DNA from: a bacterium
GTDB taxonomy: Bacteria; Krumholzibacteriota; Krumholzibacteriia; G020349025
Length of the DNA stretch: 64,000 bases
Reading direction: 5' to 3'
NCBI GenBank assembly: GCA_031362565.1
Contig: JANLSU010000062.1
Span: forward strand, 1-64,000
The position numbers were made by a program, and so were the translations under genes. Within the stretch, counting starts at the first letter, position 1. Every line of letters starts with the position of its first letter. The notes under the pieces were generated by a model, which worked only from the letters and a program-made list of their open reading frames with translations, had not been told where the DNA came from and ran no database searches. Shown here piece by piece: positions 2,781 to 7,540 of this stretch.

Positions 2781-3347
2781 CTACCTATAAAGCTGTTTAA
2801 CGTGTCCCCACTCCACTGCTTGTGTAGATGACGCTTGGGTGATTCGCACACAAGCGAGGCTCACGCTCCGCGCTTCGATCGCGTGAGCGTGGGCCGGCGT
2901 TGCAAAGAACAAGGCCTGGACTCGGTATCCGCTTCCGACTGGCACCCCGTGCCTGACCAAGTCTAGCGGGCCTATCGTTTCCCAGATGCCTTCGCACTGT
3001 CTGGTGCCAAATCCAACGAGAACGGTCGATGTACCAACGGGTACGACAGATGAGCACGAGTCCGAAGAACCACTCGGAACCTGCACGATCGAGATATAGA
3101 CAGGGAACGGCTGAGACACGTCGCGCCGGTGAGTCAGAATTGAGACTGTTACTGGACCGTTGTTTTGTAGCAATGGGAAGGACACGCGTCCCACGTGCGA
3201 ATAGAACACTTGTCCACAGGACGAATCTACCCAAGCATCCGCGGATTCTACACAAACAGGCGTAGAACCCAGGCACATGTCTATTGACGAGAGTGCTTCC
3301 GCTCTCGCCCACGACAAAAGAACCACTATAGTTACAAGCCATCTCAT
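2781..3347 (-). CDS. Secreted Cys-rich hypothetical protein with C-terminal WGHVKQLYR tail
   Basis: Signal peptide MRWLVTIVVLLSWARAEA; ATGA overlap with the upstream gene; paralog of 3344..3994. Confidence 0.8.
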   Translation of the reverse strand: MRWLVTIVVLLSWARAEALSSIDMCLGSTPVCVESADAWVDSSCGQVFYSHVGRVSFPLLQNNGPVTVSILTHRRDVSQPFPVYISIVQVPSGSSDSCSSVVPVGTSTVLVGFGTRQCEGIWETIGPLDLVRHGVPVGSGYRVQALFFATPAHAHAIEARSVSLACVRITQASSTQAVEWGHVKQLYR

Positions 3348-3994
3348 CGAAAGAGCGCCTTCACCTGGCCCCAGCTGCTTGGCACAACAGCACTCACGGG
3401 GTGCGATACCACGCTTACACAACCAAGCCCTGGGCTGCCTTCTATTTCACCGGAAGTATCAAAGGCAGTGAGTTGCAATGCGTAATTGCTGCCCAGCGGC
3501 ACGAATTGTGTGATGTCAATGTCTATATATTCCCAGTAGTCGCAGTTCAAACTACCGCGCGCTACCATCACCACTTTGCCGGGATAGGCTGTGGGGCAGG
3601 CACCGCTCGGCCTACCGTCCATAGGTACGATCTCAACATACAGTGGGAAACGATCGCTGAAAGTTGCCAAGGCATTCACACCGACAGTAATCGGACCAAC
3701 ACAGCGAAGCGGATACCAGGCCATGCGACCCACAAAGAGCGTGTAACGTCTCGGACAGTCAAGATGAATGAGCCCACCTACAATTGCGTCGCGGCAGTAG
3801 GCGTCGCCGGGGCACGCCGCCAGATTCGCGGGCTGCCCAACCGCCGGTAGGGGCCACCACGCGACGAATCCAGCCAGACAAAGCACCCAACACACGCTGC
3901 TCGGTGCCGGGGTTCGTCGCGTGGTGTATCTCTCGGTATCAAGGGCCTGAAAAATTTCAGTCGCTACCTGTACCGAGTCTTGACTTGTCCCCAT
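3344..3994 (-). CDS. Secreted Cys-rich hypothetical protein with C-terminal WGQVKALFR tail (start uncertain)
   Basis: Hydrophobic signal-like segment; shares GP[IV]TV...FP[LV]Y[IV].IV with its neighbour. Confidence 0.75.
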   Translation of the reverse strand: MGTSQDSVQVATEIFQALDTERYTTRRTPAPSSVCWVLCLAGFVAWWPLPAVGQPANLAACPGDAYCRDAIVGGLIHLDCPRRYTLFVGRMAWYPLRCVGPITVGVNALATFSDRFPLYVEIVPMDGRPSGACPTAYPGKVVMVARGSLNCDYWEYIDIDITQFVPLGSNYALQLTAFDTSGEIEGSPGLGCVSVVSHPVSAVVPSSWGQVKALFR

Positions 3995-5187
3995 GTCACT
4001 CCACGGCTAGCATTGACTCGCGCCAGGTATCCAAAAGGGTCCGCGAGCCCTCGAGCACGCTGTGCAGCATCAACCAAGTCCCATTCTGGTATGAGTGTAC
4101 CTTGTGAATCGATCGGAACAAATCGTCCGGTACGCGCAAGACCAAACCATTGCAGTATGGCGTCAGCCTGATTTCGTTCTCCGGCCTTGCTTGCTTGGCA
4201 GTAGTCCCCGAGGTACCACGCCATCGTGCTCAGATCGTAAGAGTCGATCGTATTCAACGAAGTTCCGAATGGGTTGATATTGAATTTAAAGTTATGCCCG
4301 GATCCCAGAACGCCTGCATGCCCACTGAAACCCCAGTTCACCGGAGTAGAGGGACTCAAGAGAGGCACCAATGCGACGAGATCGGAAGTATCGACAAATC
4401 CTGGGCTTGCAGGCAGAAAGTCAGGGGTGGAGAAGTTTGTGATCAGCGTGGGCAAATTGCAGAAGGCCTCCGAGCCATTCGTCGCGACGAATCTTTGTTT
4501 CACATTGACTGTCTGACCGGGCGTATAGTTCCCGATAACGTCGGTCGTGGCCTCCTTATAGGTTCCCGGGTGATCCCAGCCGAACATGAGTATGAGGTGC
4601 CCCGCCGGTCCACCACTGTTGTTCATCCGCAACAACACCGTGGTTCCTTCCATGGCACCGCCGAAGATGTCTTTTACGTGGATATTGTTGTTACTGCTGA
4701 TCGGCCACGAGTTGTTTGTAGGCGCCTCAATCCGCGATCCGCAGTTGTAGTAAAGATTCGACGAATCATCTTCCTCGTCAATGGCTGGCGTTCCGGGGTC
4801 CAGATAGTAATCTAAAGCCCAAGTCCAGCCCGCGTATGGGCCCGGAGTTTCAAAGAGGGGCACAACCTCCTTGAGCAATTTGGGCGGGTTGAATGAGACC
4901 ATGCCGTCGTTTGGGCCGCCCTGGACTTCCGTTTTCCACGCAACATAGACTGGGAAGCTGCCGTCGAGCTGTTCCCACCAGTTAGCTGTATTGCCTTGGT
5001 AGGTAGGAGAGAGCTTTCCTTGAGCGGAAGGACCCGGGAAATCCACCCAACCCGGGGTCAACGTACATCCTAAGATGACGTACGTGTGCTGCGCAGAATC
5101 TAGAGGGAAGTCTAGATTGATGGACCCGCCGGCGTTGGCGGATGAGACAAAACACAGCAACATTAGTGTGGCGGTTAGGGTCCGCAT
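3964..5187 (-). CDS. Secreted hypothetical protein with dockerin/EF-hand-like repeats and C-terminal WGQVKTRYR tail
   Basis: Signal peptide MRTLTATLMLLCFVSSANA; repeats DFLPASPGFVDTSDL and NINPFGTSLNTIDSYDL. Confidence 0.8.
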   Translation of the reverse strand: MRTLTATLMLLCFVSSANAGGSINLDFPLDSAQHTYVILGCTLTPGWVDFPGPSAQGKLSPTYQGNTANWWEQLDGSFPVYVAWKTEVQGGPNDGMVSFNPPKLLKEVVPLFETPGPYAGWTWALDYYLDPGTPAIDEEDDSSNLYYNCGSRIEAPTNNSWPISSNNNIHVKDIFGGAMEGTTVLLRMNNSGGPAGHLILMFGWDHPGTYKEATTDVIGNYTPGQTVNVKQRFVATNGSEAFCNLPTLITNFSTPDFLPASPGFVDTSDLVALVPLLSPSTPVNWGFSGHAGVLGSGHNFKFNINPFGTSLNTIDSYDLSTMAWYLGDYCQASKAGERNQADAILQWFGLARTGRFVPIDSQGTLIPEWDLVDAAQRARGLADPFGYLARVNASRGVTWGQVKTRYR

Positions 5188-5401
5188 GGCGATACCTGCC
5201 ATTCGTCGAAAACTGTGACGATCGCCGCTCCGGACGGAACAACGCGTCAGCGCTTTGCCGGAGCCGCTCAAACCGTTTGTGCAGCATGACCCACATGAAC
5301 ACAAGTTTCAATCTCAGACCTCTGCTGGCCGTTCCACGACTTGGCGCTGGATCGACCCTGAAATCGTCCCGGAAGGCTTGTTGAGCAGCGTGCCCCTCTA
5401 T

Positions 5402-5435
5402 GACAGGCTCTTGGAAACGGGAGCTGTCTTTTTTT
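5402..5435 (+). terminator. Intrinsic terminator-like hairpin with T-tract
   Basis: GACAG(G)CTCT...GGAGCTGTC followed by 7 T. Confidence 0.6.
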
Positions 5436-5670
5436 GGCACACCCGCGAATTCCTTGCAGCTCGAAACGAACGCCGGCACCCAGTCGCCAAGGGGCGCGCC
5501 GTCATCACGCGAAAATAATCTCAGCCGCCGAGACTCCGCGTGACCGGCCACGCGAGCACGCAATCGAGGCCCCGGCCCCGCAACGTTTGCGCGGATCTGT
5601 TCAGTTCTGCAGGACCTGACACGCTAAAGGGTCTCGAAAGCGACACTTGGTGGCCCGGAACCAGGGCGAC

Positions 5671-5746
5671 TGAATAGTTAATTTATTAATAATCAGCTAA
5701 TTAGCTAGACTGGTGCCCCGTCGTTCCTCGTTGGTACGCGTGATGC
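5671..5746 (+). promoter_or_regulatory. sigma54-type promoter with upstream IHF-like site
   Basis: TGGTACGCGTGATGC (GG-N10-GC, 5732-5746); AATCAGCTAATTA (5691-5703, fits WATCARNNNNTTR) inside an AT-rich tract. Confidence 0.7.
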
Positions 5747-5812
5747 CTTACCACTCCCTCAGATTGCCGAGCGGGTCTAAACCAGATCCCCGGCGCAAAA
5801 GGAGGTGCCGAC

Positions 5813-6004
5813 ATGCAAGCAACAGTCATCGCAAACCAAGTGCAGGCCCAAGTGGCCGTCGACGAGTACCTGGGATTCAGCATCCAACAGAACAGCGGCT
5901 CCTACATCGCGAGCCCCACGGGATGGCAGGGAGAAGTCCTCCTCGCCGAGAGCATGCCGGTCCTGCGCCGCAAGATCTGGCGTTGGTGGCATCAGGTCCA
6001 GTGA
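5813..6004 (+). CDS. 63-aa small protein, paralog 1 (LRRxIxRWW family)
   Basis: AGGAGG RBS; clear similarity to 6388..6579. Confidence 0.85.
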   Translation: MQATVIANQVQAQVAVDEYLGFSIQQNSGSYIASPTGWQGEVLLAESMPVLRRKIWRWWHQVQ

Positions 6005-6300
6005 CTCTGATCCTCGGGCGTGTGGGACTCCCAGCGGGGAACCTCGCCAGTCCCAGCGCCCGGGGCCGTTCGCAGACCGAGTTTGGTTCGTCCCATCAAA
6101 AATCTGCCCGTTGCCGCACCCGGCCCGGTCAGCGCCACGACTTGGACAAGTTGTCGCGCCGACCGGGCCCCGCCTCTTTCGGGGCCGAATCGGACCGGCG
6201 CCGGACGTGGTGGAACTGTCGGACGCGCCGGCAGCACGCCCAAACGCGCTCTCACGGCCGCGCCGCGCGTGTCGCCGGCGCATTCGCGCTCTACCGGCGC

Positions 6301-6316
6301 GGGCATGCATCGTGCG
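6301..6316 (+). promoter_or_regulatory. sigma54-type promoter
   Basis: GGGCATGCATCGTGCG (GG-N10-GC) about 70 nt upstream of paralog 2. Confidence 0.5.
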
Positions 6317-6387
6317 AGTGCAACGAGTGATTCGGGTTGTCCTAATTGCCCCGGACAGCGAATCGCCCACGCGCGAGGGGGACCGCC

Positions 6388-6579
6388 GTGGCATCGAAAC
6401 GTCTACCGCAAGCTGCGACCGAGGACCTGTTTCTCGGTTACCGCATTCGCAAGCTCGGCGATGTGTATGTCGCAACGCCGCAGGAATGGGCGCAGGGGCG
6501 CGCGCAACTGCTTGCCGCCGCCAATCTGCCGGAACTGCGGCGCGAGATCGAACGCTGGTGGTACGAAGTCGGCGCCTGA
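6388..6579 (+). CDS. 63-aa small protein, paralog 2 (LRRxIxRWW family)
   Basis: GAGGGGG RBS, GTG start; DLFLGYRI...YVATPQEW...LPELRREIERWW aligns with paralog 1. Confidence 0.85.
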   Translation: MASKRLPQAATEDLFLGYRIRKLGDVYVATPQEWAQGRAQLLAAANLPELRREIERWWYEVGA

Positions 6580-6643
6580 TGCAGCGCCGATTCGGTTGGC
6601 ACTCGTGGCGGCGATCGCGCCGCGCACCAACGGCGCTTCGTAA

Positions 6644-6697
6644 TGACAAGTTGTCGCGGCGGGCCCGCGACGCCGCACCGGACGCGACAAGTTGACA
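6644..6697. promoter_or_regulatory. Paired palindromic GACAAGTTG(T/A)C motifs (candidate enhancer sites)
   Basis: TGACAAGTTGTCGCG (6644-6658) and CGCGACAAGTTGACA (6683-6697); the same GACAAGTTGTCGCG occurs at 6145-6158. Confidence 0.55.
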
Positions 6698-6797
6698 GGC
6701 CGCAAACCCGCCCCCAGAGCCATCGACAGACCGCGGCCGCGGTTCCAACACCGCCGCAGAACGCGACTTCCGAGATCCGAGTCACTGGGCAACAGGT

Positions 6798-6813
6798 TTG
6801 GTACGCGATGTGC
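6798..6813 (+). promoter_or_regulatory. sigma54-type promoter
   Basis: TTGGTACGCGATGTGC; the first 10 nt are identical to the promoter at 5731. Confidence 0.65.
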
Positions 6814-6824
6814 GGAGAGAGATG

Positions 6825-6917
6825 AATCTGCATGGACGACGGTGGTGGGGGTTCGCAGTGGTGAAACTGGTTGTGTGGGGGCGCACGCTAGTTTCGCGAC
6901 CCCCCCACCGCGTTCTT
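6825..6917 (+). ncRNA. Candidate sigma54-dependent small RNA (long imperfect hairpin)
   Basis: Starts about 12 nt after the -12 element; arms 6844-6856/6896-6909 and 6863-6870/6888-6895 pair; no convincing protein ORF. Confidence 0.4.
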
Positions 6918-6967
6918 GCAGGAACAGATCGAGCCGCGCGCCGAGATCCCCGCCACAAGCAGCGTTC

Positions 6968-7540
6968 TCACCGATCGAAAAGATCCGCGTGATAGAACGG
7001 CGCCAACGCCGCGACAACCGCCATCTCGAATGCCGTCGCCCGTGACAAGAGGCCGCGCGTCACATGCCCCCAGGTGCCGCCTTGGCTGCGGACGTCGGTC
7101 GCCTTCGCGACTCGATCAATCACTTCCCCCAAATCTTCGCCGGCACGCACCGGAACCGCGATGCAAGCCGGCAGCGCGACGCTCGGACCACACCCGAACG
7201 CACCGCGCCGGCCATCCCAGGCATAGCACCAACTTCGTAGCCACGCCGTGTCCGTGCCCTGGGGAGCATGCACGCCACCCTCGAGTCCGAGATACAAAGC
7301 CGCGTCCTGTCCTTCGGCTTCGAGCTCGGACTGCAGGGTCAGGGCGCGTTGCTCGGCACCGCGTTGCAACTCGTCGTCCGAAAGGGGCGTCGCGGCAACC
7401 CCGGAAAGAGTCGCCCGGAGTACGAGTTCGACGCCCGACCAGCGGGCCGGATCGAGCTCCGCCAAACGCTCGAGTACGGCACGCACCGCTTGGACCTTCG
7501 GCTCGCGCCGGGACGCGAGTGCGACACGTGGCGGTTGCAA
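6968..7540 (-). CDS. yjjX: Inosine/xanthosine triphosphatase (DUF84/NTPase_I-T family)
   Basis: VALAS...PKVQAV, GAEQRA, GLEGG, GEDLG, G..G..TRGLLSR motifs. Confidence 0.85.
   Translation of the reverse strand: MQPPRVALASRREPKVQAVRAVLERLAELDPARWSGVELVLRATLSGVAATPLSDDELQRGAEQRALTLQSELEAEGQDAALYLGLEGGVHAPQGTDTAWLRSWCYAWDGRRGAFGCGPSVALPACIAVPVRAGEDLGEVIDRVAKATDVRSQGGTWGHVTRGLLSRATAFEMAVVAALAPFYHADLFDR

Follow-up and report, generated by a model that had tools for sequence, protein, structure and literature searches.

A probable sigma-54 output module with two candidate activator inputs, two paralogous small proteins and a structured RNA in one family of Candidatus Krumholzibacteriia

The window analysed here, a 64,000-nt stretch of contig JANLSU010000062.1 (assembly GCA_031362565.1) from a genome of 5.4 Mb with 65% G+C (G000 in the comparisons), carries around positions 5,671 to 6,917 three tandem units that very probably form a sigma-54 output module with two activator inputs. 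The products are two paralogous proteins of 63 residues, A and B, and an RNA of about 95 nt that would fold into one long hairpin with an invariant G-rich apical loop. The module is best explained as specific to one family of Candidatus Krumholzibacteriia, a class that, to our knowledge, has no cultured member and in which gene regulation is almost uncharted. In the proposed mechanism, each unit would have its own sigma-54 promoter, dependent on an enhancer-binding protein bound upstream, and the DNA at these promoters would probably be bent by an IHF-like protein. One activator, recognizing GACA-N3-TGTC about 120-155 nt upstream, would switch on gene B and the RNA together, and gene A would answer a GCGCA-N5-TGCGC-like site near -153, probably the target of a second activator. 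The coordinates of all elements, with their differences from the related locus L072, are collected in Table 1.

Table 1. Elements of the module in the window and their divergence from locus L072.
Feature	Position	Strand	Differences from L072	Details
Candidate activator site of unit 1, CCGCAACGTTTGCGC	5578..5592	+		1 mismatch to GCGCA-N5-TGCGC; 154 nt before P1
IHF-like site AATCAGCTAATTA in A+T-rich tract	5691..5703	+		Perfect match to WATCARNNNNTTR
P1, sigma-54-type promoter	5732..5747	+		TGGTACGCGTGATGCC; GG 5733-5734, GC 5745-5746; predicted start ~5757
ORF A, 63 aa, unnamed family	5813..6004	+		Shine-Dalgarno AAGGAGGTG at 5798-5806
3' untranslated region of gene A with hairpin 6012-6065	6005..6119	+	9/115	z -1.70
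Palindrome GACAAGTTGTC (PAL1), candidate activator site for P2	6145..6155	.	0/11	
Spacer PAL1 to P2			19/145	
P2, sigma-54-type promoter	6301..6316	+	2/16	GGGCATGCATCGTGCG; GG 6302-6303, GC 6314-6315; predicted start ~6326; one difference at Y, the other at an N of the consensus
ORF B, 63 aa from GTG 6388	6388..6579	+	16/192	Paralogue of A; alternative TTG 6346 gives 77 aa; 10 differences at third codon positions
Spacers between ORF B and P3			15/65, 11/30, 28/102	23-37%
Palindrome GACAAGTTGTC (PAL2), candidate activator site for P3	6645..6655	.	0/11	
Second site, near-palindrome GACAAGTTGAC	6686..6696	.	0/11	Flanking spacers differ by 27-37%
P3, sigma-54-type promoter	6799..6814	+	0/16	TGGTACGCGATGTGCG; GG 6800-6801, GC 6812-6813; predicted start ~6824
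Structured RNA, short type	6825..6921 (approx.)	+	0/97	Long hairpin 6828-6919; apex GUGUG-GGGG-CGCAC 6873-6886
Neighbouring NTPase gene			89/533	

An earlier reading of the window from its letters alone (the sequence-only reading) had proposed three GG-N10-GC sites, and all three are present, with GG and GC exactly 10 nt apart. Its coordinates for the first two (5732 and 6301) are exact, and the third (6798) falls on the T preceding P3. P1 and P3 contain, as it stated, an identical stretch, TTGGTACGCG; P2 has GGCAT, and a GGGCAYGC variant is common to P2 and locus L052. That reading had staked its case in part on the presence of rpoN and on the conservation of promoter motifs and spacing: the genome encodes rpoN (PF04552, 213 bits), and promoter sequence, spacing and position are kept in orthologous loci. 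Counterparts of all three sites stand at the same positions in all six genomes of the family, as they do in 22 metagenome loci. Five relatives have both genes of the tandem pair on a single stretch; there, TGGTAY-type GG-N10-GC sites precede gene A by 70-96 nt and gene B by 75-90 nt, and a third GG-N10-GC site is found between the two genes, followed by some 190 nt of non-coding DNA. The 22 metagenome loci hold the same units in varying order, most of them with the layout of the relatives, and the palindrome-promoter-hairpin arrangement of P3 recurs at L056:3510 and L072:836. The promoter set (59 sites listed, 56 distinct) yields the consensus TGGTAYG-N3-YGTGC, followed by S-T-T, with T1 retained in 54 of the 56 sites, T4 in 53, A5 in 54, G7 in 51 and the T before GC in all 56.

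Across 1517 aligned columns the window differs from L072 at 210, and these differences avoid the proposed elements (Table 1). The near-palindrome that the sequence-only reading had placed upstream of promoters 2 and 3 occurs at 6145, 6645 and 6686, the first two being perfect palindromes whose starts precede the first base of P2 by 156 nt and that of P3 by 154 nt. When promoters are sorted by the product that they precede, perfect GACA-N3-TGTC sites are found at none of the 22 gene A promoters, at 9 of the 14 gene B promoters and at 16 of the 20 RNA promoters (20/20 if one mismatch is allowed), lying 118-156 nt upstream at gene B and RNA promoters, with one at -182. GCGCA-N5-TGCGC-like sites (at most two mismatches) are distributed differently, accompanying 15/22 gene A, 0/14 gene B and 4/20 RNA promoters; their positions are mostly -151 to -156 at gene A and scattered at the RNA promoters. 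Since GACA-N3-TGTC stands at both gene B and RNA promoters, units 2 and 3 would have a common input, and unit 1, which has the GCGCA-N5-TGCGC-like site and no GACA-N3-TGTC, probably has another, so that two activators would be at work. The earlier idea of a co-regulated module is thus borne out only for units 2 and 3; the upstream palindrome of unit 1 is a different one. Genome-wide, GACA-N3-TGTC is not enriched (72 instances versus 25-81 at other spacings), and only two of these 72 palindromes have a promoter-matrix match 40-260 nt away, both of them in the module (at 150 and 152 nt by the scan's own measure). The combination of palindrome and promoter, unlike either pattern alone, is therefore unique to the module in this genome. 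The pattern GACAAGTTG[TA]C has eight instances in the genome, three of which are in the module.

The other components of a sigma-54 system are also present. The genome holds 26 matches to the sigma-54 activator domain PF00158, of which 22 score above 200 bits and correspond to full enhancer-binding proteins, together with five genes of the HU/IHF family; no sigma-70-like promoter was found in a scan of 5400-7100. The IHF-like site described by the sequence-only reading does lie in the most A+T-rich tract, near P1 (54% A+T versus 23% at P2 and 34% at P3). Across the 56 promoters the best IHF-like matches cluster 40-56 nt upstream, and matches with at most two mismatches accompany 32/56 promoters versus 35/108 control windows, a modest enrichment. 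A candidate activator gene on contig C66 with both site types nearby was rejected, as the sites fall inside long ORFs, one of which looked like polyphosphate kinase. Elsewhere in the genome, a TGGCACGGCTCGTGC site at G000:C77:4069 (+) lies in DNA without codon periodicity on either side and may, judging from its sequence, drive another sigma-54-dependent non-coding transcript.

The third unit, in which the sequence-only reading saw a probable small RNA, encodes a structured RNA under strong selection, with compensatory base pairs and no change against L072. Its hairpin folds at -62.2 kcal/mol (z -6.68), and none of 200 shuffles folds as well. The broader claim that each unit ends in a long hairpin was borne out at 6844-6909 and 6012-6065, the latter being ordinary for its G+C content (11/200 shuffles as good), and failed at 6583-6637, which folds no better than shuffles (z +0.62, 149/200 as good) and shows no conservation (15/65 differences from L072). 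Elements of the short type are present in L054, L055, L056, L063, L064, L067 and L072. RNAalifold applied to seven distinct short-type sequences gives 32 pairs, 11 of them with compensatory changes, and 95% of the alignment cells are paired, a share that drops to 38-52% once the partners are slid. In pairing, compensatory counts and covariation score (four of five measures), the observed values exceed those of all 500 shuffles. The apex GUGUG-GGGG-CGCAC is invariant in all seven. In a MAFFT alignment of all RNA variants the helices fell out of register and RNAalifold returned only 3 pairs, and for this reason the claim of covariation is confined to the short type.

Genomes of the same family have, in place of the short type, a longer RNA (about 190 nt), whose terminal hairpin is related to that of the short type both in its outer stem (GUGGCGUGG with CCACGCCAC) and in its apex, CUG-GGGGCG-CAG. 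A model derived from five long forms detects one copy in each of six relatives, and its best match in a 5-kb scan of the window is 6836-6921 (19.6 bits, E 9e-5; next 9.2 bits), a score that is not significant by itself at whole-genome scale, long hairpins being prone to attract such models; the link between the two forms is therefore drawn from shared motifs and context. Run on the whole genome of the window, the model gave nothing at E<=1 (150 of 2029 candidates scored), and BLAST and nhmmer detected there neither a second copy of the RNA nor the long form. In longer variants from metagenomes, between two and five of the hairpin loops display G-rich motifs (GGGGCGC, UGGGGGCA). Neither form has a family match in Rfam: the only hit in the window was rpfG, inside ORF B and at 19.7 bits against a gathering threshold of 75.9 (E 0.32), and the five related loci gave none. 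In L056 (2997-3640), as also in L055 and L061, two RNA units stand in tandem, each with its own palindrome and promoter, and in L056 a long form, some 260 nt in length and with several G-loop hairpins, is followed by the short form that the window also has. A match to the short-apex pattern in G002, the only one in eight relatives, was taken as chance, with no promoter, palindrome or family gene nearby.

The first and second units encode two paralogous 63-residue proteins, as proposed earlier, with 22 of 65 aligned residues identical (E 8e-14). The accompanying expectation that automatic annotation would largely miss the module does not hold for ORF A, which is already called in a public protein collection (P0001). 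Both frames bear the marks of coding selection: the MQAT start and Shine-Dalgarno sequence of ORF A are conserved in 22 loci, orthologues of ORF B begin M-A-[ST]-[KR], and most of the differences between ORF B and its L072 counterpart are at third codon positions (Table 1). The protein family was recovered in all six other genomes of the same taxonomic family, in 0/54 genomes of other families of the class and in 0/201 genomes of other families of the phylum, that is, in 7 of 208 genomes across the phylum, all in one taxonomic family. Among 1.84 billion proteins, 72 representatives were retrieved at E<=0.001, one of them false (P0015, a repeat protein of 756 residues matched through low complexity). 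Relatives carry three to four copies per genome, and further paralogues are encoded in the genome of the window at C97:58343-58540 (-) and C34:36819-36995 (-), the former adjoining a tRNA gene on the opposite strand. The order in locus L013 (G002:C168, 362-1470) is long RNA, then promoter and gene of the B type, then, 167 nt further on, a third family gene without a promoter of its own.

No model in Pfam, NCBIfam, PHROGs or PADLOC matches the small proteins above or near cut-off; across 69 family members, seven families are each matched by a single member (E 0.005-0.23), and the HicB and UPF0150 Pfam models match none of the 69 at E<=10. A profile search of the PDB with the family yielded no solved structure beyond an unrelated cytolysin (E 0.94). 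The predicted fold of these presumably cytoplasmic proteins comprises three or four strands and, at the C-terminus, a helix that is basic and rich in tryptophan; in the AlphaFold model (pLDDT 80.4, pTM 0.60) the strands span residues 15-19, 22-27, 30-35 and 43-45 and the helix 48-62. Foldseek returned nothing for this model at E<=0.001 (3k6q_A ranked third, E 1.7). In the structural search the top chain was the unrelated MmoD (6d7k_H, Z 6.0, rmsd 3.6), and the lower matches were three-strand-plus-helix domains (Z 3.2-4.2, rmsd 1.4-2.0 A) that include HicB antitoxins, small Thermus proteins, double-stranded RNA-binding domains (dsRBDs) and release-factor domains. At such Z values the predicted fold class is only a lead.

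Sequence of gene A also occurs in RNA libraries. Four libraries from three studies contain one contig each, of 189-267 nt, matching the 3' part of the gene; the contigs start between 5850 and 5931, end at 6108, 6108, 6116 and 6119, and leave units 2 and 3 uncovered. They are 92.5-97% identical to the window, with 6 to 15 mismatches each (X20 just under 95%). Within ORF A, 9 of the 12 variable sites among them are at third codon positions, and one codon changes from AGC to TCC, both serine; coding in this frame is supported by the third-position bias. The contigs hint weakly at natural transcription of gene A, with a transcript end near 6110-6119, past the hairpin 6012-6065.

The layout can be compared with known systems at several levels. 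According to excerpts of the published account, glmY and glmZ of the Enterobacteriaceae are two related small-RNA units under one activator, with sigma-54 promoters, GlrR/QseF sites of the form TGTC-N10-GACA more than 100 bp upstream and IHF sites between (PMC3045617). As far as those excerpts go, this is the closest documented layout to the module, which likewise has a small RNA behind a sigma-54-type promoter, TGTC/GACA half-sites more than 100 bp upstream, IHF-like sites between, and two units (here those of P2 and P3) with a common activator site. The two systems differ in the arrangement of the half-sites (GACA-N3-TGTC here, TGTC-N10-GACA there, again by those excerpts), in the extension of the same control to a small-protein gene here, and in the RNAs, which have no sequence or Rfam likeness and come from unrelated lineages. 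Sigma-54-dependent small RNAs are also known as Qrr in Vibrio, CrcZ in Pseudomonas and Pxr in Myxococcus, which resemble the module in that a small RNA is the output of an enhancer-binding protein. For CbrB, the comparison draws on the abstract of PMC6296734. RNA family, proteins and host lineage are different, and no Rfam match links the RNA of the module to them.

For the small proteins, a tentative structural comparison is with HicB N-terminal and small UPF0150-like chains and with dsRBDs. Residues 20-63 of the model form three strands and a helix, and superpose on 3k6q_A, 6g1c_V, 6g1n_A, 4p78_A, 2yzt_A, 1wv8_A and 2dsy_A (three of these matches being Thermus entries that we take to be HicB-like) with an rmsd of 1.4-2.0 A over 42-45 residues, and equally on the dsRBDs 5cff_E, 4x8w_A and 9kby_A (rmsd 1.4-2.0 A, 42-45 residues). 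For the HicB-like folds the comparison gave Z 3.3-4.1 with rmsd 1.5-2.0 over 43-45 residues, and such Z values are common for unrelated chains. No HicA-like partner gene was noticed beside the module, where the Pfam-named neighbours are an NTPase_I-T gene and, in relatives, holB, metG, NHL-repeat and TatD genes; no search was aimed at one. CsrB and RsmZ, small RNAs with a repeated loop motif that sequester the protein CsrA, offer a parallel at the level of design: the long RNA variants repeat a G-rich motif in two to five hairpin loops, and the RNA has as its neighbour a gene for a protein of some 60 residues. The motif is, however, not GGA, the short RNA of the window is single-looped, binding is here only a conjecture, and the small proteins show no likeness to CsrA in Pfam, PDB sequence or fold searches.

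Several observations weigh against the sigma-54 module as proposed. The promoter sites were chosen with a matrix that requires GG and GC, and the invariance of those four bases is a matter of construction. The textbook-like pattern TGGCAYR-N4-TTGC is not enriched genome-wide (15 at the right spacing versus 5-15 at other spacings), nor is TGGTAYR-N3-YGTGC (3 versus 0-5). The matrix built from relatives ranks P3 11th and P1 26th among the listed matches and reaches at least 12 bits at 63 genome positions, by itself not a discriminating result. The transcript starts near 5757, 6326 and 6824 are predictions. None of the genome's 26 PF00158 matches lies on the contig of the window, no activator or kinase gene is among the genes adjacent to the module there, and no enhancer-binding protein gene adjoins it in the neighbourhoods of four relatives. 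The RNA-library data are contigs, from which strand and start are not readable and in which carry-over of DNA is possible. The paralogues on C97 and C34 have GG-N10-GC candidates in this genome, none of which is conserved before the orthologues in relatives, and sigma-54 control is not claimed for these two genes. In L054, L063, L064 and L067 the short RNA directly follows gene B and lacks a promoter of its own. Lastly, the HicB-like and dsRBD fold matches are weak (Z 3.3-4.2) as far as a role of the proteins alongside RNA is concerned.

Some of these points bear on specific alternatives. The TGGTAYG-N3-YGTGC boxes might be operators or promoters for another factor, such as an extracytoplasmic function (ECF) sigma factor or a repressor, given that TGGTAC and GTGC deviate from the textbook sigma-54 elements TGGCAC and TTGC, that neither promoter pattern is enriched at the right spacing, and that the boxes are known from sequence, with predicted starts only. 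We consider this very improbable: the GG-N10-GC register is exact and TGC occupies -14 to -12 in 56/56 sites, GGCAY does occur in P2 and in L052, the palindromes at -118 to -156 together with IHF-like sites at -40 to -56 reproduce the classic enhancer layout, and the genome supplies rpoN and 22 activators. Sigma-54 is thus the probable factor at P1, P2 and P3. A better-placed, though still unlikely, alternative is that the third unit, instead of being a free-standing small RNA, serves the gene B transcript as a conserved 3' element or terminator, and perhaps the convergent NTPase gene as well, with P3 redundant or non-functional. In the four loci just named, the hairpin lies 10-110 nt after the gene B stop with no palindrome or promoter between, and in the window 47 nt separate it from the convergent gene, whose stop is at 6968. 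Against this, P3, PAL2 and the near-palindrome are unchanged relative to L072 amid spacers that differ by 27-37%, and the same palindrome-promoter-hairpin unit is present in L055/L056 and L072, in L056 without gene B on its available stretch. Termination alone would not demand an apical loop invariant in all seven sequences; the U tract is weak, the RNA having only GCGUUCUUGC as its 3' tail, and a scan called no terminator-like site in 5700-7100, the G+C-rich hairpin of the third unit included. Because both layouts occur, there are two ways in which the short RNA can arise: at the 3' end of a gene B transcript or, as in the window, from its own copy of the promoter and palindrome.

The function of the products is the most speculative part. 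Our first guess is a ribonucleoprotein switch, in which the small proteins would work on the hairpin RNA or together with it; we regard it as possible but improbable. The more specific version, a new kind of switch in which the proteins recognize the hairpin or its GGGG apical loop and the two activators set the ratio of protein to RNA, is somewhat less likely again. Alternatively, the small proteins could be feedback modulators of the activators or of sigma-54, and the RNA could act separately by base pairing with mRNAs. PspA acts on PspF in this manner, HrpV and HrpG act on HrpS, and regulators of enhancer-binding proteins are often expressed from promoters that they control; a pair of paralogues under separate inputs would be in keeping with an inhibitor and its counter-inhibitor, and the G-rich loop could be a pairing seed. 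We rate this as more doubtful still, as no protein search revealed sequence or fold likeness to PspA, HrpV or HrpG, and a search for pairing of the RNA apex, confined to the leaders of genes A and B, gave no consistent signal for either gene (A, z -1.2 to +1.2 in 13 loci; B, z -1.8 to -2.3 reached in 3/8 loci). In G001, G005 and G006 the gene B leader has UCCCCGCCCCGGGGA immediately before the start codon, which by its sequence could fold back on the G-rich ribosome-binding region; among leaders of this kind, those of G001 and G005 were alone in reaching notable duplex scores with the apex (z about -2.2 to -2.3), G006 being outside that test.

In the window the module is flanked on one side by a gene for a 446-residue protein without known family and on the other by NTPase_I-T and TatD genes; in four relatives holB and metG precede it and NHL-repeat, NTPase_I-T and TatD genes follow. 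Within 5400-7100 a clear T run accompanies just one terminator-like site, at 5406-5435 (+), between the divergent 446-residue gene and P1, and no gene ended by it was identified. On the minus strand of 2781-5304, three successive ORFs of 213, 216 and 446 aa with hydrophobic N-termini have a common C-terminal motif, W-G-[QH]-V-K-x-[LR]-[FY]-R, which may act as a C-terminal signal, specific to the lineage, for sorting or anchoring; Pfam gave no match to the 446-aa protein.

A literature search confined to the pairing of Krumholzibacteria with sigma-54 found no paper linking the two, and the module provides a first internally consistent picture of sigma-54 control in Krumholzibacteriia, comprising an IHF-like site, two candidate sites for activators and a promoter consensus for the locality. 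The module further adds three products that are absent from the libraries searched, namely a small-protein family and two forms of a structured RNA. An RNA that is identical to that of a relative over 97 nt while the adjoining protein-coding genes differ by 8-17% usually marks an important molecular interaction. If the two activators did set a protein-to-RNA ratio, the RNA would titrate the proteins, or the reverse, and the module would in this way control a lineage-specific response.

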